Part shown: piece by piece, positions 36,148 through 51,650 of the stretch
Numbering within the stretch: the first letter of the stretch is position 1
Layout of the letters: the number at the start of each line of letters is the position of its first letter
Source: an uncultured Bacteroidales bacterium
GTDB lineage: Bacteria; Bacteroidota; Bacteroidia; Bacteroidales; Bacteroidaceae
Assembly: GCA_902799985.1 (NCBI GenBank)
Contig: CADCCR010000011.1
Location: 153-64,152, forward strand
Length of the DNA stretch: 64,000 bases
Reading direction: 5' to 3'
Notes under the pieces: model-generated
The model's database searches: none
The model's input: only the letters and a program-made list of their open reading frames with translations
What the model was told of the DNA's origin: nothing
Made by a program: the position numbers and the translations under genes

Positions 36148-36181
36148 TTGATTACTAAATCAACAGAAGCTTTTGTCTATT

Positions 36182-37381
36182 ATGAAGAGATTCTTATCAT
36201 TCGTTTTTGTTGCGTCCTTGCTGAGTGCAGGCAGTGTCCTTGCCCAGACTGGCACGGGCTTCATCGGCAACGGCTACTATCGTATCCGCAATTATGCCAC
36301 CGACCGTTACATTTATGTGACGGACAACAAGGATTATTACGATATGGCACGCGACAAGGAGGATTTTCAGGCTATACAACTTTGGAAGGATGTCACTCGC
36401 TTTGCATCCGACCCCGGCAGTGTCATCTACTTTGAGGAAGTGACACCCGACCATTTCGACCTAAGGGCTCAGGGCACCGGGGTTCATTCCTTTACTGGTT
36501 ATTATGTTGGTGTGACCAAGAGTTCCGGCACTTATATTGTTTCGGCCAGTGTGACGAAAGCTGGAATGCAGGTGACGAAGTACCTGACCGATGACGAGCA
36601 GAGTTCGTCGGACCAAGGCACGATGGGAACCCGAGGCAAGCTCAACTACCGCAAGTGGATTGTGGACAAGATAGAGACGGACCATGCAACCAACTATTTC
36701 GGCATCAAGCCATCGATAGAGGTTGGTGGCAAGTTCTATCATCCGTTCTATGCCGCTTTCCCCTTCAAGGTGGCAAGCGCAGGGATGCATGTCTACTACA
36801 TCGACGAGGTGGAGAGCAAGTATGCCGTCTTGAAGGAGATAGAGGGCGAAGTGCCGGCCAGCACGCCTGTCCTCATCGAGTGCAGTTCAGCCAACCCTTC
36901 GGAGAACCGTGTTGAGCTTCTTGCCACTTCATCCGCTAAGGTGACTGGCAACTTGCTTGGCGGTAATTATTTCTGCAATGGCAAACGCCCTCAGGAGTCG
37001 GTCGATGCTTATAAAGTCTTCGATGCAGACAAGATGCGTGTCTTCTCGGTGGTGGACGGTCAGCTTGTGCTTACGAACAATGCGCAGGACCGTCTCAACG
37101 AGATAAAGACTGTCGACTACTCCACATTATCTATGATAAAGCTCAAGTGTCTTCCTTCCAACACCAGTTATATGAAGGCGGACTCTGATACACCTGCCGA
37201 GGTGCCCGTGTTCGTCGACGGTCAGGTTCCCGACGCCATTGGCAGCATCTTGGCAGAGCAGAAGCCTACGGCCGCAGGTGTCTATTCCCTCAGCGGCACA
37301 CAGCTTAGGGCATCGAGCGATTTGCAAGGTCTGCCTGCAGGCCTGTATATCGTGAACGGTAAGAAGGTAGTCATAAAATAA
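36182..37381 (+). CDS. Secreted hypothetical protein with a T9SS-type C-terminal tail
   Basis: The ATG at 36182 gives MKRFLSFVFVASLLSAGSVLAQ. The C-terminus ...GVYSLSGTQLRASSDLQGLPAGLYIVNGKKVVIK resembles those ending at 354 and 12435. Confidence 0.8.
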   Translation: MKRFLSFVFVASLLSAGSVLAQTGTGFIGNGYYRIRNYATDRYIYVTDNKDYYDMARDKEDFQAIQLWKDVTRFASDPGSVIYFEEVTPDHFDLRAQGTGVHSFTGYYVGVTKSSGTYIVSASVTKAGMQVTKYLTDDEQSSSDQGTMGTRGKLNYRKWIVDKIETDHATNYFGIKPSIEVGGKFYHPFYAAFPFKVASAGMHVYYIDEVESKYAVLKEIEGEVPASTPVLIECSSANPSENRVELLATSSAKVTGNLLGGNYFCNGKRPQESVDAYKVFDADKMRVFSVVDGQLVLTNNAQDRLNEIKTVDYSTLSMIKLKCLPSNTSYMKADSDTPAEVPVFVDGQVPDAIGSILAEQKPTAAGVYSLSGTQLRASSDLQGLPAGLYIVNGKKVVIK

Positions 37382-37459
37382 AGTCCCATCCCGACCTCGT
37401 CCGAGGGATGAGGTGAGGGGGTGACATATACATTATATATAATATATAGAGATTCTACG

Positions 37460-38650
37460 ATGAAGGCTTTTGGAGCTTTTGCAATAGCCCTGTCTCTGAC
37501 GGCAGCGATGTCGGCCCAGGAGGGCAGTCAGTCCTTTACTTCTGTGTTGGCTCGGAAGAATATCCTGAACCACATGGACGTTGGCGTGAACGTGGGCACG
37601 ATGGGTGTCGGCGTTGATGTGGCAGTGCCTGTAGGCGACTATGTGCGCGTGCGTGCCGGCTACCACTATATGCCGCGCTTCACCATCAACTCCGACTTCC
37701 CTGTCGAGACGCGTAGCGGCAGCTTGAGCCAGTCCGACTTGAAGCGCTACATGGGCAAGATGAGCGAAGTGACCACCATCTTGGAGCAAAACGGCATCAA
37801 CCTCGACAACTATTCGAGGGAAAAGTCGCTGATAGATAAGTTCAGCGGCGTGGAGCTGAAGGACAAAGTGTCGATGGGCATGCGTCCCAGCATGCATCAG
37901 TTCAAGCTTCTGGTAGACGTTCTTCCCTTCAAGAACAATAAGCATTGGAGTCTGACGACAGGTATCTTTGTCGGTCCGGCTCAGGTGGGCGATGCCTGCA
38001 ACAAGGATCTGGAAATGCCATTGCTGCAGGCAATCAATGCCTACAACGAGCTGTACGTCATGTCCTGCACCTGGGAAATGTTAGGTGGCGGCGACGTTTA
38101 CTACAGGGGCAGGTCGCTCCACGACACCTTCTCCAAGATGGGTGTTGCCGGCTTCCCCTTGGGAACGTTCGCCAGGGACGTCACGCGTGTCGTTACCGAC
38201 GAGAATGGCGCAGAACATACGCTTGTGGCGGCGAAGGGCACTAAGGCTATCATGGTGCCTTCAGCCGACGGGACTGCGCGTGCAGAGATGGAGGTGAGCA
38301 AGGTGCGTCCCTACATCGGGTTCGGCTACAACACACATCTGTCGCGCAACAAGCGTTGGCAGTTGAATGTCGATGCCGGTGTGATGTTCCTCTGTGGAGC
38401 TCCGAAGGTGTACGTTGACAACGTCTATAGCATCGACGAGTCGCTCATCGATACCGGCAACGAGGTGTACGATATAGTCCGCCCCAACGAGGAAGGGACG
38501 GACTATGTGGTGGACACACCTTTGTCGCACATCGACCTGGTTCGCGACTTGCAGGGAATCACCGGCAAGGTGGGCGACTTGGTGGACGTTGCCTCCAAGT
38601 TCAAGGTCTATCCGAATGCGACGGTGACGTTCTCGTACAGGTTGTATTAG
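37460..38650 (+). CDS. Hypothetical outer-membrane beta-barrel-like protein
   Basis: The ATG at 37460 gives the signal peptide MKAFGAFAIALSLTAAMSAQ. The protein ends ...ATVTFSYRLY, the aromatic terminus typical of outer-membrane barrels. Confidence 0.65.
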   Translation: MKAFGAFAIALSLTAAMSAQEGSQSFTSVLARKNILNHMDVGVNVGTMGVGVDVAVPVGDYVRVRAGYHYMPRFTINSDFPVETRSGSLSQSDLKRYMGKMSEVTTILEQNGINLDNYSREKSLIDKFSGVELKDKVSMGMRPSMHQFKLLVDVLPFKNNKHWSLTTGIFVGPAQVGDACNKDLEMPLLQAINAYNELYVMSCTWEMLGGGDVYYRGRSLHDTFSKMGVAGFPLGTFARDVTRVVTDENGAEHTLVAAKGTKAIMVPSADGTARAEMEVSKVRPYIGFGYNTHLSRNKRWQLNVDAGVMFLCGAPKVYVDNVYSIDESLIDTGNEVYDIVRPNEEGTDYVVDTPLSHIDLVRDLQGITGKVGDLVDVASKFKVYPNATVTFSYRLY

Positions 38651-38659
38651 GAGCCCCTA

Positions 38660-38727
38660 AAGCCCCTCTCCAAACCTCCCCCAAAGGGGAGGCTTTTTTT
38701 GTTAGGGGAGGTTGGGATGAGGGGAGG
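38660..38727. repeat. GC-rich palindromic element (one full and one partial copy) between convergent genes
   Basis: aagcccctctccaaacctcccccaaaggggaggc, then TTTTTTT, then ggggaggttgggatgaggggagg. Confidence 0.85.
38675..38700 (+). terminator. Intrinsic terminator formed by the palindromic element
   Basis: CCTCCCC-caaa-GGGGAGG followed by cTTTTTTT, 25 nt after the stop at 38650. Confidence 0.6.
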
Positions 38728-38730
38728 ACC

Positions 38731-38835
38731 TCAGTAGCCCATGCACGAGGTGGTGCCGAGGGCGGTGAGGAAGGCTGTGAGGGCGGCAACGGCCATCTTC
38801 ACGAGCAGTTCGATAAATCTGTTCTTCTTTTTCAT
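38731..38835 (-). CDS. 34-codon ORF: signal peptide plus lipobox plus 3 residues (resembles the small ORFs I recall being labelled 'smalltalk protein' in Bacteroidales)
   Basis: Hand translation gives MKKKNRFIELLVKMAVAALTAFLTALGTTSCMGY. Its ATG overlaps the upstream TGA as ATGA (38832-38835). It is below the ORF-track cutoff. Confidence 0.55.
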   Translation of the reverse strand: MKKKNRFIELLVKMAVAALTAFLTALGTTSCMGY

Positions 38836-39320
38836 ACGTTCTTTTTGTATAGTTCAAAACCTTTGTTAATGATCTCTTCGGTCAGGAGCATCCCGCACTC
38901 CTGACGTGCCATGGCACGGACGAGTGCCGGCCAGTCATGTTCCGTGAGCCGCTGCGTGTCGCTCAGGCCAGTCCACAGGCAGACGTTGCGGATGTAGCGT
39001 TCGGTATCGTTCTCTGTGGGCGGTGCCCAGCGTCCGATGATGTCGCGGATGCAGCACAGCCCGTGCTTGTTGCGATAGGAGCGTAGGATGCAGAATGCGG
39101 CTCGGAGGCCCCATTCCATGCTCTCAAAGCGGACGAAGGCCCCTCTCCCGACCTCCCCCAAAGGGGAGGCCACATTGCTGATGAGGGGCTGCTCGCCTGG
39201 AGTTGACTTCGTCGGGCGTTTGCTACTCCCCTTGCAGAGGGAGTCAGCGGGGGTCTCTTCCCCCTTCCACTTCTGCCCTTTGACTCGGCGGATATTCAGC
39301 GGGTTGTTGTTAGAGTTCAT
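38832..39320 (-). CDS. Hypothetical protein downstream of the HU-HIG gene (family seen in phage and Bacteroidales contexts; function unknown)
   Basis: NPLNIRRVKGQKWKGE...FVRFESMEWGLRAAFCILRSYRNKHG...IRDIIGRWAPPTENDTERYIRNV. It carries an in-frame palindromic element (ASPLGEVGRGAF). Confidence 0.7.
   Translation of the reverse strand: MNSNNNPLNIRRVKGQKWKGEETPADSLCKGSSKRPTKSTPGEQPLISNVASPLGEVGRGAFVRFESMEWGLRAAFCILRSYRNKHGLCCIRDIIGRWAPPTENDTERYIRNVCLWTGLSDTQRLTEHDWPALVRAMARQECGMLLTEEIINKGFELYKKNV
39136..39170. repeat. GC-rich palindromic element in frame within CDS 38832-39320
   Basis: aaggcccctctcccgacctcccccaaaggggaggc. Confidence 0.85.
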
Positions 39321-39346
39321 AGTTCATAATTCATAGTTCATAGTTA
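39314..39346. repeat. Octamer-type repeat (TTCATAGT/TTCATAAT) spanning the start codon of CDS 38832-39320
   Basis: agttcatagttcataattcatagttcatagtta. Confidence 0.75.
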
Positions 39347-39380: not shown

Positions 39381-39423
39381 CGCCTCCCCTTTGGGGGAGG
39401 AGGGGTTAGGGGAGGAGAGGGGC
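39381..39423. repeat. GC-rich palindromic element between the HU-HIG gene and the downstream gene
   Basis: cgcctcccctttgggggaggaggggttaggggaggagaggggc. Confidence 0.85.
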
Positions 39424-39427
39424 ATGG

Positions 39428-39889
39428 TTACTCGAGCCCCTGGATGGTGTCCTGGTTCTTGATGACCTCGATGGCGGAGTTCTGTGCGGCACGGGTGGGC
39501 ACAAGCTGGAAGGTGGCGTAGGAGCGGAGGTCCTGGAATTCCTTGCCGGGAGTCCAGCTGACGTTCACCTCCTTGATGTTGGCAGCGGTGAAGGCATCGG
39601 CGGTCTTGGCTCCTTCGGTCTTGAGCTGTGCCTGGAAGTCGCCCAGGTCGCCGAGCTTGACGCGCTTGCCGTCGAGGATGAGTTCGCGCAGACACCCTAC
39701 GGCGATGTTGAGTACGGCGATGATGTCCCCCTTGCTGTAGACGCTGCCGTGGTTGGTGATGTGGTTGGCAAAGGCGTTGATGTCGAGTACTTCGTTCGAC
39801 TGTGCCACGCCGTAGGCCTTGGTCTCGGTGATGTCTTCCTTCTTGGTTCCGGGCTGTGCGGACATGATAGCGATGCTGTAGTTAATCAT
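39428..39889 (-). CDS. Bacteroidales-type HU-like DNA-binding protein (HU-HIG architecture)
   Basis: 153 aa with an HU-like core (...NHITNHGSVYSKGDIIAVLNIAVGCLRELILDGKRVKLGDLGDF...) and a C-terminal extension. Confidence 0.75.
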   Translation of the reverse strand: MINYSIAIMSAQPGTKKEDITETKAYGVAQSNEVLDINAFANHITNHGSVYSKGDIIAVLNIAVGCLRELILDGKRVKLGDLGDFQAQLKTEGAKTADAFTAANIKEVNVSWTPGKEFQDLRSYATFQLVPTRAAQNSAIEVIKNQDTIQGLE

Positions 39890-40217: not shown

Positions 40218-40244
40218 GACCCCTCCCGTCATTTGGGAGGGGTC
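40218..40244 (-). terminator. Second hairpin plus T-run downstream of the HU gene
   Basis: GACCCCTCCC-gtcattt-GGGAGGGGTC, followed on the minus strand by TTTTTGTTTCCTACAC. The same junction sequence occurs at 25855-25871. Confidence 0.55.
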
Positions 40245-40347: not shown

Positions 40348-40611
40348 TTAGAATGCGAGTTCTGCGCCAGCCTTGAACTTAACCACCTTCTTAGCAGGGA
40401 TGGTGATAGTCTTACCGGTTGCGGGGTTGACACCCTTGCGAGCGCCACGCTCTGAAACGGCGAATGTGCCGAAGCCCACCAGAGCTACCTTGTCTTCTGC
40501 CTTAACAGCGGCGGTGATGGCGTCCAGAGTTGCCTCCAATGCCTTCTTTGCGTCTACTTTGCTCAAGCCTGCGCCCTCGGCGATCTTGGCTACTAATTCT
40601 GTTTTATTCAT
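40348..40611 (-). CDS. hup: HU family DNA-binding protein
   Basis: MNKTELVAKIAEGAGLSKVDAKKALEA...FGTFAVSERGARKGVNPATGKTITIPAKKVVKFKAG, the canonical HU fold signature. Confidence 0.95.
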   Translation of the reverse strand: MNKTELVAKIAEGAGLSKVDAKKALEATLDAITAAVKAEDKVALVGFGTFAVSERGARKGVNPATGKTITIPAKKVVKFKAGAELAF

Positions 40612-49682: not shown

Positions 49683-51650
49683 ATGCGGTGGTCTGTTCTC
49701 CTTTTGCTATGGCTCTTCCCTCTTGTTGAAGCTATGGCTCAGAACTCCTCCCCTTTGGTGGAGGCTGGGAGAGGGGCTTCGTGGGACGACTTTGTCGAGG
49801 AATATCTGAGCGACGAGGAACGGGCTGACGACGAGGACCTGCAGCTGCATCTGCAAGACCTCAAGGAACTTTCCGAACACCCCCTGAACATCAACACGGC
49901 AACCGTAGAGGACCTTCTGCAGTTGCCGTTCCTGTCTGAGGCACAGATAGAACAGATACATGCCTACATCTACCTGCACGGACAGATGCAGACGCTCTCG
50001 GAACTGCGACTGGTGCCGCTCATCGACGATGCGACACGCCGCTGGCTCTCCCTCTTCGCCTATGCCGGGACGGAGCAACACGAGGACCGCCGCTTCCTGG
50101 GCCGCCTGCATCACGACATCTCGTCGCGCCTCGACGTGCCCCTCTACTACCGCATGGGACAGCAGCGGGCCGACGGTTACAGGGGCGATGCGCTCTATCA
50201 TCGCCTGCGCTACACGCTCTCCGACGGCCGGCACCTGCAGGCGGGACTGCGCATAGAGAAGGATGCAGGCGAACGCTTCTACGACAGCTACGGCGCCTAC
50301 GCCATGCTGCAGGATGTGGGACCGCTGCAGAAGGCCGTCGTAGGCGACTACCGCATCGGCTTCGGCGAAGGGCTGGTGATGGGCGGTTCGACGTGGCACA
50401 GCAAGTCGACACCGCCGCTGAAGGTGCAGGGTGGACTGCGACCGATGACGGGCATGGACGAGGTGAACTTCCTGCGCGGCGCGGCTGTGACGTTCTCGCT
50501 GGGCAGACATGTCAGTCTGAGCGCGTTCGGTTCCTATCGCAAGCGCGATGCTACGCTGACCGACGAGGGCGAGGTGCAGACCTTGCGCACAGACGGTTAT
50601 CACCGGACAGCATCGGAATGGGACAGGAGGCGGAACGTGGGCAGCACCATGCTGGGCGGCAACATCGCCTGGCAGGGCAGCGGCTTCCACCTGGGAGCCA
50701 CAGGCTACTGGCAGCAGTTCAGCCGCTCCCTCAACCCCGGCACGCAGCAGTATCGTGCCATTTATCCCAAAGGAAAGACCTTCGGCACGGCAGGCGTGAA
50801 CTATGGCTACACGCGCTACCGCATCGCACTGGCCGGCGAGACGGCCTACAGCACAGCCGGCGGGGGCATGGCCACCGTGAACCGCATCTCGTGGACCCCA
50901 AGCCGACGCTACACGCTCTCCGTCGTGCAACGCTTCTTCTCCTATAACTATTATTCCTTCTACGGCAGCACCTTGAGCGAGAACAGCTCGCCGCAGAACG
51001 AGAGCGGCGTGCTCGTACACCTGCAAGCCGAGCCGCTGGCGGGACTCTCGCTGACGGCCTATGCCGATTTCTTCCACAATCCCTGGCCGCGCTACCGCAT
51101 GACGCACAGCAGCACCGGCCAGGACTTCATGCTGCAAGGCACGTATGCCCTCTCCCGAAGGCAGACCATCATGGCACGATATCAGTTGAAGCGCAAGGAG
51201 AACGGCGACCGCATGGAGCCGCACCACCGCGTGAAGTTGCAGTGGACCTGCGAAGCATCCGGCCGTTGGCGCCTGCAGACGACGGGTTCCTTCCACAGCG
51301 TGCTGGGCTGCAAAGGCTTCCTCCTGAGCCAAAACGCCCGTTTCATCGTAAAAAAACCGGGCTTGACCCTCAACGGACAGCTCGGATACTTCCACACCGA
51401 CGACTACGCGAGCCGCATCTACGTCCAGCATCCTGCACTCTTCAGCAGCGTCTCGTCGGCCTCCTACTACGGGCACGGCATGCTGGGCGTCGCCACGTGC
51501 CGCTGGCAAAGCAAGAACAGACGTTGGATGCTCGAAGGGCGTTACAGTCTGCTCCGCTACTTCGACCGCGACGAGCAGGGCACAGGTCTGCAGGCCATCA
51601 TGAGCGCCTGGAAGAACGACATCTCCGTGCAGTTCCGCATAAGGATATAG
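49683..51650 (+). CDS. Helix-hairpin-helix domain protein with a large C-terminal beta-rich region
   Basis: Signal peptide, HhH segments (LNINTATVEDLLQLPFLSEAQIEQI), then about 500 aa rich in aromatic-alternating strands. Confidence 0.8.
   Translation: MRWSVLLLLWLFPLVEAMAQNSSPLVEAGRGASWDDFVEEYLSDEERADDEDLQLHLQDLKELSEHPLNINTATVEDLLQLPFLSEAQIEQIHAYIYLHGQMQTLSELRLVPLIDDATRRWLSLFAYAGTEQHEDRRFLGRLHHDISSRLDVPLYYRMGQQRADGYRGDALYHRLRYTLSDGRHLQAGLRIEKDAGERFYDSYGAYAMLQDVGPLQKAVVGDYRIGFGEGLVMGGSTWHSKSTPPLKVQGGLRPMTGMDEVNFLRGAAVTFSLGRHVSLSAFGSYRKRDATLTDEGEVQTLRTDGYHRTASEWDRRRNVGSTMLGGNIAWQGSGFHLGATGYWQQFSRSLNPGTQQYRAIYPKGKTFGTAGVNYGYTRYRIALAGETAYSTAGGGMATVNRISWTPSRRYTLSVVQRFFSYNYYSFYGSTLSENSSPQNESGVLVHLQAEPLAGLSLTAYADFFHNPWPRYRMTHSSTGQDFMLQGTYALSRRQTIMARYQLKRKENGDRMEPHHRVKLQWTCEASGRWRLQTTGSFHSVLGCKGFLLSQNARFIVKKPGLTLNGQLGYFHTDDYASRIYVQHPALFSSVSSASYYGHGMLGVATCRWQSKNRRWMLEGRYSLLRYFDRDEQGTGLQAIMSAWKNDISVQFRIRI
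49746..49779. repeat. GC-rich palindromic element in frame just after the signal peptide
   Basis: ctcctcccctttggtggaggctgggagaggggctt, which encodes SSPLVEAGRGAS. Confidence 0.8.

Follow-up and report, generated by a model that had tools for sequence, protein, structure and literature searches.

A 34-codon gene of the smalltalk family is the last cistron of a HU-HIG operon in Bacteroidales

In a 64,000-nucleotide (nt) stretch of DNA from an uncultured Bacteroidales bacterium (contig CADCCR010000011.1; hereafter the window), an open reading frame (ORF) of only 34 codons ends three residues after a cysteine codon. Is so short a frame a gene, and what would its product do? We find that it is the gene for a tiny membrane peptide of the smalltalk family, which has a name but is unstudied. 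The initial annotation of this DNA had described the ORF and had argued that its translation is coupled to that of the gene before it. The ORF is present as described, and its coordinates and sequence agree with coupling: its ATG and the TGA stop of an upstream 162-amino-acid (aa) ORF overlap as ATGA. The elements of the unit are as follows.

38731..38835, minus strand: smalltalk mini-ORF, 34 codons plus TGA stop (start 38835, end 38731), encoding MKKKNRFIELLVKMAVAALTAFLTALGTTSCMGY
38832..39320, minus strand: 162-aa muralytic enzyme of the PHA02564/Enc34-endolysin type, without signal peptide or transmembrane segment (hereafter the lysin)
39428..39889, minus strand: 153-aa HU-HIG DNA-binding-type protein (Pfam PF18291, E = 9.5e-19), first gene of the unit
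40218..40244, minus strand: terminator-like hairpin with T-run after the canonical hup gene (40348-40611), 5' limit of the HU-HIG/lysin/smalltalk unit

Because the upstream hup gene ends in its own hairpin with a T-run, HU-HIG, lysin and smalltalk form a separate unit.

The window peptide matches the NCBIfam model NF033879, 'smalltalk', with 25.3 bits against a curated cutoff of 24.7 (E = 1e-5), its residues 12-32 aligning to positions 9-29 of the 29-position profile, and narrowly misses Pfam PF20096, DUF6486 (22.4 bits against a gathering threshold of 22.7), on which its close relatives score 37-50 bits. The label 'smalltalk protein', which the initial annotation had proposed, is thus borne out by the model score and by NCBI's naming of several relatives. 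The peptide has the traits of the family, namely a length of about 30-36 aa, one hydrophobic helix with a T-A-x-x-T-A motif and a short end after S-C. With NF033879 and DUF6486 it has its length, helix motif and S-C-M ending in common, but the tail of its sub-clade is CMGY and not CMGxGP-hydrophobic. Relatives are numerous. A profile search, queried with an alignment headed by a 57-aa gene call, gave at least 5361 protein clusters with E <= 10 among 8000 candidates scored, marginal matches included, and an exhaustive search gave 1216 representatives (50% identity level) with E <= 0.001; the identical window peptide is called as a gene on 83 contigs. NF033879 ('hypoth_equivalog') and DUF6486 are names only, and the family is functionally blank. 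In the literature we found no experimental study of smalltalk function, a single paper that mentions the family, as a line in a transcriptome expression table, and nothing on DUF6486 or NF033879.

Selection on the frame was analysed in 89 distinct homologous DNA sequences. The peptide pattern T[AT][LIV][GT][TV]TSCM had served to find the majority of the loci, and as a result the metagenome sample consists mainly of rumen-type Bacteroidales and the Cys-containing clade. The mini-ORF frame has no stop in any of the 89 sequences. The pooled ratio of non-synonymous to synonymous differences per site (pN/pS) is 0.31, or 0.36 once the positions fixed by the search pattern are dropped, and the median ratio of the corresponding substitution rates (dN/dS) is 0.18; in the two alternative frames the ratios exceed 1 and stops are present. 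T20, A21 and T24 are invariant yet use all four codons, and the Ser at -1 to the Cys is invariant while both AGY and TCN codons are used. The initial annotation had asked beforehand whether the frame is kept in orthologous loci, and it is: in syntenic orthologues (secDF/rhomboid/hup), smalltalk has a dN/dS of 0.14-0.21 at a pS of about 0.57, with no stops, and is more constrained than the lysin (0.29-0.44) and HU-HIG (0.31-0.39) of the same loci. Family match, many homologues and codon-level purifying selection place the ORF far above chance, and it is almost certainly a real, translated gene. That it is a chance ORF over a conserved DNA or RNA element, as its extreme shortness, the repeated hairpin element that it abuts and the fit of random short ORFs to a lipobox pattern might suggest, is extremely improbable, because synonymous sites vary strongly while amino acids are invariant, Ser moves between codon families, the other frames are broken where this one is free of stops, and no Rfam family is matched at its gathering score (weak 'whalefall-1' and CRISPR-repeat-like scores concern only the 31-nt repeat described below).

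What kind of peptide is it? The proposal of a basic N-terminal region and a hydrophobic core holds: residues 1-13 carry a net charge of +4 (K2, K3, K4 and R6 included), and the maximum 19-residue Kyte-Doolittle window is 1.94, at residues 8-26. AlphaFold2 models a single helix over residues 3-32, with a mean predicted local distance difference test (pLDDT) of 82. Across the family the helix has a conserved polar pair near its start (Glu and Lys, 22 and 18 residues before the Cys) and a small/polar stripe, A-A-L-T-A-x-L-T-A and then [G/T]-T-T-S-C-M-G, along its length. In-silico substitutions lowered the scores on the two curated models as follows.

C31A: loss of 5.9 bits (NCBIfam) and 3.5 bits (Pfam)
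S30A: loss of 1.0 bit (NCBIfam) and 2.1 bits (Pfam)
T20A+T24A: loss of 8.7 bits (NCBIfam) and 9.9 bits (Pfam)

Judged from the sequences, the most constrained element is the hydrophobic helix and not the mature part. Relatives usually end in C-M-G-x-G-P-F/I/L, sometimes with two further hydrophobic residues. If the residue that follows the Cys is numbered +1, then G at +2, G at +4 and P at +5 are virtually invariant while each of the four codons is in use, at positions outside the search pattern. The window's CMGY reads as a truncated variant of this tail, and the truncated-tail sub-clade is widespread (P0229, for example, occurs on 146 contigs). Across the family the tail ranges from absent to about eight residues, the G-P-hydrophobic part being lost in the window's clade. 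Taken together, the peptide is very probably embedded in a membrane.

The initial annotation had described the order HU-HIG, a 162-aa protein and a mini-ORF as recurrent in Bacteroidales, and we see it at related loci, with a middle protein of about 135-160 aa. HU-HIG and lysin genes were detected with our own hidden Markov models, built from Pfam-validated seeds. In 50 of the 57 metagenome loci with at least 700 bp upstream, a same-strand HU-HIG gene ends -1 to 264 nt before smalltalk, and the genes downstream of smalltalk are unrelated and in many cases run convergently. Smalltalk therefore closes a two-gene module that HU-HIG opens. Its HU-HIG partners vary widely (140-313 aa, Gly-rich tails in many, median identity 23%). 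When loci were anchored on HU-HIG instead (153/157-aa subfamily), HU-HIG, lysin and smalltalk were found in every complete locus, in one of which the lysin is not called as a gene. A published survey found HU-HIG genes to be almost entirely without conserved operonic linkages (PMC5499826); an unannotated mini-ORF was probably invisible to it. In different species the window trio stays stably in synteny with housekeeping genes (secDF, rhomboid, hup).

Other copies of the unit have other surroundings. HU-HIG/(lysin)/smalltalk units at L073-L076, L078-L080, L171 and L175 often stand beside genes for DUF3987, D5_N plus DnaG zinc ribbon, and BT4734-like_N primase-helicases, and ImmA/HTH pairs or restriction-modification genes adjoin at the same loci, as at the edge of an integrated element; the window copy, unlike these, lies between housekeeping genes. 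A survey upstream of the metagenome loci for a recurrent mobile-element gene gave 49 ORFs from 26 loci, which looked heterogeneous. One identical HU-HIG protein (P0481) occurs in three genomic contexts (L171, L172 and L173), with lysins of 155, 134 and 162 aa and smalltalk tails CMGFGPI, CLGYGPF and CMTAL, a pattern suggestive of modules being shuffled behind a HU-HIG gene that stays fixed. In P0316 (131 aa, on a single 12-kb contig) a HU-HIG N-domain is joined in frame to smalltalk (…ENQKKGALKKEETWKTVIQVIVSILTAALTALGTTSCMGHGPIIL); possible readings are a Rosetta-stone hint and an artefact of deletion or assembly. Upstream of HU-HIG we found no promoter motif of Bacteroides type (TTTG…TAnnTTTG).

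The middle gene of the window unit encodes a muralytic enzyme of phage type. Its 162-aa product matches PHROG 873 'endolysin' (E = 1.1e-34) and, in phmmer searches of PDB sequences, Gp29 (9vvp, 1e-12) and 7q47 (0.007); its AlphaFold2 model (pLDDT 78.5) resembles the Enc34 catalytic domain in 7q47 (Foldseek E = 1e-6, template-modelling score 0.65). Homologues occur in 611 phage records, where they are mostly labelled endolysin; the label 'structural protein P5' on some homologues stems from phage PM2 gene V, an endolysin in RefSeq. A conserved N-N-P-L-N-I-R motif begins at residue 4. The maximum 19-residue Kyte-Doolittle window is only 0.86, so the protein has neither a signal peptide nor a transmembrane segment. 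Smalltalk follows all ten of its closest homologues (at least 47% identity), with HU-HIG detectable upstream of nine, and remoter homologues (at most 39% identity) stand in other contexts with neither smalltalk nor HU-HIG.

How phages use such enzymes bears on the position of smalltalk. Enc34 endolysin has its catalytic domain fused to a C-terminal transmembrane domain, which is required for lysis without holin or Sec (PMC8943055), and M4Lys likewise needs a C-terminal transmembrane domain for holin- and Sec-independent lysis (PMC7143992). In phage Seurat a homologous endolysin without a transmembrane segment is followed by a holin gene. The ATGA-coupled smalltalk gene occupies the 3' position held by the transmembrane domain in Enc34 and M4Lys or by the holin gene in Seurat. 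The window enzyme thus has the catalytic fold of Enc34 and M4Lys with a transmembrane element directly 3', but not in the same polypeptide: here that element is a separate 34-aa protein with one helix instead of two and no sequence similarity to theirs. The cassette is also unlike them in being chromosomal, headed by HU-HIG, under purifying selection and set in a housekeeping context.

A programmed -1 frameshift from lysin into smalltalk, by which the architecture of Enc34 would be mimicked, was considered and rejected: the window's C-AAA-AAG before the overlap is CAAACAG in L001, L002 and L070, and stop-filled spacers of 34-205 nt at many loci also speak against a frameshift fusion. Apparent lysin-smalltalk 'fusions', seen in stop-to-stop scans and in P0284, arise where the lysin gene is read through out of frame. 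By eye, an ORF of L162 that begins 288 nt beyond smalltalk and a second ORF, on the upstream side of a smalltalk locus, resemble Peptidase_M15-type cell-wall hydrolases; the smalltalk module may thus associate with more than one family of hydrolases.

Some family members have no Cys. A Cys-less subtype of 30 aa, M[KT]QE[ST]KNKWSVIIN…LSAFGL[AV], scores 27.0 bits on NF033879 and is named smalltalk by NCBI; its non-identical loci differ by 7-10 synonymous and 3-5 non-synonymous codons, including a TCG/AGT Ser switch. At the Cys-less loci L003, L008 (4566-4760), L174 (3529-3723), L175 (2969-3181) and L177, the next gene encodes a conserved two-transmembrane protein of 64-70 aa, with a 4-nt overlap, a charged C-terminus, a holin-like size and a match to phrog_8278 (E = 7.6e-5). 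This protein cluster is seen on up to 81 contigs, in a tight four-gene operon; at L004 and L006 the Cys-less peptide occurs without the two-transmembrane protein.

What, then, might smalltalk do? We regard the gene, its family, the operon order, the helix and the fold of the enzyme next to it as shown. All that we say of function, including membrane insertion, topology, permeabilising activity and processing at the Cys, we infer from sequence, context and analogy. The reading we put forward, tentatively and at less than even confidence, is a single-pass membrane-active peptide that serves a domesticated lysis or release cassette of phage type. The peptide would have a basic cytoplasmic N-terminus, one conserved transmembrane helix and a very short outward tail with a single Cys, and would act as the last product of HU-HIG-headed operons, coupled in the window's clade to a cytoplasmic, signal-less Enc34-type enzyme. 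The functional unit would be the membrane helix, either uncleaved or freed by signal peptidase II. By self-association, or by engaging a conserved membrane component, the helix would perturb or open the inner membrane, making smalltalk a holin-like or release-protein-like partner in the cassette; the signal-less muralytic enzyme, and possibly HU-HIG, might then reach the cell wall or the outside. The main clue to a role in lysis or release is the recurrent association, in varied architectures, with a signal-less endolysin-type enzyme and a holin-sized partner; the terminal operon position, behind proteins without export signals, also suggests it. Like a holin, smalltalk has at least one predicted transmembrane segment and its gene adjoins an endolysin-type gene.

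Several observations weigh against such a role. Searches of Pfam and PHROG gave no homology to holin, spanin or colicin-lysis families, the best holin match being Holin_SPP1, at 16 bits against a threshold of 27, for a relative. The C-terminus is uncharged, unlike the charged tail of holins, and the peptide is smaller than known holins. Most sampled family members lack a muralytic gene in their operon, which rules out enzyme export as the role of the family at large, and the lysin-free HU-HIG/smalltalk pairs are explained only if HU-HIG is the released cargo. No confirmed smalltalk match was obtained in IMG/VR or in 50,697 phage records, where the shortness and hydrophobicity of the query and the low-complexity filter may hide matches. 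A simple pore leaves the conserved Cys and the C-M-G-x-G-P-hydrophobic tail unexplained, and many paralogous lytic peptides per genome would need tight control, of which none is evident. On the side of the cassette reading, smalltalk peptides are about 74% identical across loci where the HU-HIG partners are about 23% identical, which points to a conserved target and not to a cognate partner surface, but the comparison is biased and the peptide figure inflated, as the loci were retrieved by peptide similarity.

The alternative that survives best, unlikely though by no means negligible, is the one in the initial annotation: the ORF encodes little more than a lipoprotein signal peptide. Lgt would lipidate Cys31, signal peptidase II would cut between Ser30 and Cys31, and the main product would be a lipidated oligopeptide, CMGY in the window and C-M-G-x-G-P-F/I/L in the majority of relatives, which could serve as a signal or as a lipopeptide that the host senses. 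The membrane would retain the free signal peptide of 30 residues. The K/R-rich N-region, hydrophobic core and Cys31 fit a permissive lipobox rule of PROSITE type (Cys limit 35), and in this sense the T-S-C is lipobox-like as claimed. The same rule, however, matches about 12 spurious short ORFs in the G+C-rich window, so the pattern alone is no evidence. Set against [LVI][ASTVI][GAS]C, the -1 and -2 residues of TTSC fit and the -3 Thr lies outside the canonical set.

How atypical the box is becomes clear beside the 42 lipoproteins that are predicted in 1.18 Mb of related loci. Their -3 residue is L, M, F or V in 86% and T in 2%, and their Cys lies at position 16-26 in 41 of the 42, against 31 in the window peptide (29-31 in the family); TTSC and Met at +2 each occur in none of them. 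Ser at -1 and Thr at -2 are seen among local lipoproteins too, and the FVSC, LASC and VTSC boxes reported for other lipoproteins of the window are present. The peptide is without the acidic surface-export motif of the window's real lipoproteins. Its supposed signal peptide is its best-conserved part, unlike ordinary signal peptides; Cys-less members are genuine and under selection; and the tail varies in length, with G-P-hydrophobic gone in the window's clade.

In favour of processing, both curated models weight the Cys, as the C31A losses indicate, and the invariant +2 G, +4 G and +5 P are as expected of a functional mature stub. Anaerobic Bacteroidales are not known to have DsbA/B-type oxidants, which makes a disulfide role for a lone periplasmic Cys less likely, a point we count for the prolipoprotein. 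The atypical box, the Cys-less members and the truncated tail speak against a lipidated CMGY. The conserved Cys column, where C31A costs 5.9 bits, keeps lipidation plausible, and since Cys-less members exist it is not required family-wide; that Cys31 is lipid-modified at all we hold to be possible, at somewhat less than an even chance. Rather unlikely is the broader proposal that abundant gut and rumen Bacteroidales encode thousands of mini-prolipoprotein variants from which Lgt and signal peptidase II release a lipidated oligopeptide. Here this would be diacyl- or triacyl-Cys-Met-Gly-Tyr, and elsewhere C-M-G-x-G-P-F/I/L, in effect nature's version of the synthetic Pam-Cys lipopeptides. Such a product could act as an intercellular or host-sensed signal, while a stable 30-residue signal peptide stays and acts in the membrane.

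Two known systems invite comparison. Colicin lysis or bacteriocin release proteins are small lipoproteins whose stable signal peptide contributes to membrane damage. Smalltalk is likewise a tiny lipobox-bearing last gene in an operon of otherwise signal-less products; unlike them it has a mature part of 1-9 residues (three after the Cys here) instead of about 28, an atypical lipobox and Cys-less members. Membership in the colicin lysis family was rejected, there being no homology to Lysis_col (Pfam) and at most three residues after the Cys, as was an o-spanin (Rz1-like) assignment, given three residues after the Cys and no embedded or adjacent i-spanin. Enterococcal sex pheromones are cut from the signal peptides of full-size lipoproteins and are partner-specific. 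Smalltalk resembles them in that its most conserved stretch lies just N-terminal to the lipobox Cys and a DNA-binding protein is co-encoded, but it is nearly invariant while its HU-HIG partner diverges, which argues against a cognate signalling pair.

An effector or toxin of a conflict system is improbable. On this account the peptide would damage membranes while being checked or triggered by a fast-evolving HU-HIG that senses foreign DNA, with the lysin speeding suicide lysis, much as in type I toxins or the transmembrane effectors of abortive-infection systems. Type I toxins (Hok, TisB, Fst, Ibs) are single-helix hydrophobic peptides of 20-40 residues, and smalltalk is similar in size and hydrophobicity; unlike them, it is the coupled distal cistron of a protein operon and has no Rfam match at threshold. 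The lineage-specific expansion of HU-HIG and its rapid divergence have been read as signs of a role in biological conflict (PMC5499826), and the median identity of 23% among the partners here fits that view, as do the loci beside restriction-modification genes, Gp49/HTH pairs and mobile-element primase-helicase genes and the identical HU-HIG found with three different lysin/smalltalk variants. None of the three window proteins, by contrast, has a PADLOC match, no Rfam or antisense-RNA candidate was found, the window trio sits in its stable housekeeping context, the presumed effector does not diversify, and there is no known means by which a HU-type protein would gate a membrane peptide.

Less probable again is a membrane anchor or regulator, that is, a transmembrane partner encoded in trans that tethers DNA-bound HU-HIG to the inner membrane, or a small regulatory subunit of a conserved membrane machine. 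The sister clade offers a precedent: bacterial HU-CCDC81 proteins join a HU domain, a disordered segment, a transmembrane segment and usually a SPOR or LysM peptidoglycan-binding domain in one polypeptide (PMC5499826). In the window unit, too, a HU-type domain and a membrane helix go together with a module directed at peptidoglycan, but in three cistrons, and its cell-wall module is a hydrolase without an export signal. An anchor would also suit the disordered Gly-rich HU-HIG tails directly before smalltalk, at gaps down to -1 nt, the in-frame fusion in P0316 and the much stronger conservation of the peptide in comparison with HU-HIG. P0316, however, occurs only once, on a single contig, no covariation with HU-HIG is evident, and the coupled muralytic enzyme and conserved Cys tail are left unexplained.

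Smalltalk is very common in Bacteroidales, and a bare family name now has a testable structure: smalltalk is conserved as the closing gene of HU-HIG operons, has a conserved motif at its C-terminus, and is joined from time to time by a muralytic enzyme of phage type and a two-transmembrane holin-like protein. We did not find the HU-HIG linkage, the optional Enc34-type enzyme, the two-transmembrane partner or the tail motif in the literature, and they may be undescribed. If smalltalk is truly a lysis or release factor, it bears on the way in which DNA, DNA-binding proteins and vesicles leave Bacteroidales cells; a lipidated smalltalk would be a ribosomal lipopeptide of unusually small size, with possible relevance to host sensing.

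Downstream of the mini-ORF lie two convergent-strand genes that are syntenic in related species. The adjoining 409-aa gene (37421-38650, plus strand) encodes a signal peptide and belongs to no Pfam family; the product of the 402-aa gene (36173-37381, plus strand) has a signal peptide and a match to SBP_bac_5 below threshold (E = 0.053). The DNA around and within the unit also carries repeats and hairpins.

38645..38730, minus strand: long G+C-rich imperfect palindrome starting at the mini-ORF stop codon (-44.6 kcal/mol, z -3.35), with one copy of the 31-nt repeat
38663-38693, plus strand: copy of the 31-nt repeat, inside this palindrome after the mini-ORF stop
39140-39170, plus strand: copy of the 31-nt repeat, in frame within the lysin ORF and encoding …SPLGEVGRG…
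39382-39412, minus strand: hairpin copy of the 31-nt repeat in the HU-HIG/lysin spacer, with no U-run after it on the operon strand
49746-49776, minus strand: fourth window copy of the 31-nt repeat
39314..39345, minus strand: four tandem 7-nt units TATGAAC/T that end in the lysin ATG, with three overlapping MNYEL* mini-ORFs upstream of the lysin

The strong terminator proposed to follow the mini-ORF is half right. A hairpin does stand directly at the stop, but its T-run is on the plus strand, where it makes the palindrome a terminator of the convergent 409-aa gene, and the mini-ORF strand has only TTTGG. The hairpin element likewise follows the ORF in L001, L002, L004, L006 and L067-72. The 31-nt repeat, with the hairpin CCTCCCC-AAA-GGGGAGG, has four copies in the window against none expected, three of them inside the three-gene unit. 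Its copy in the lysin gene falls in an insert (residues 26-59) that is disordered and length-variable (pLDDT below 50); several homologues elsewhere also have the SPLGEVGRG insert, and still others have some other G+C-rich insert there. The repeat looks like an element of the repetitive extragenic palindrome (REP) or miniature inverted-repeat transposable element (MITE) kind, tolerated in a protein loop. The TATGAAC/T array has two copies in metagenome strains L069 and L071 against four in the window, and may be a slipped-strand variable repeat that affects the expression of lysin and smalltalk.

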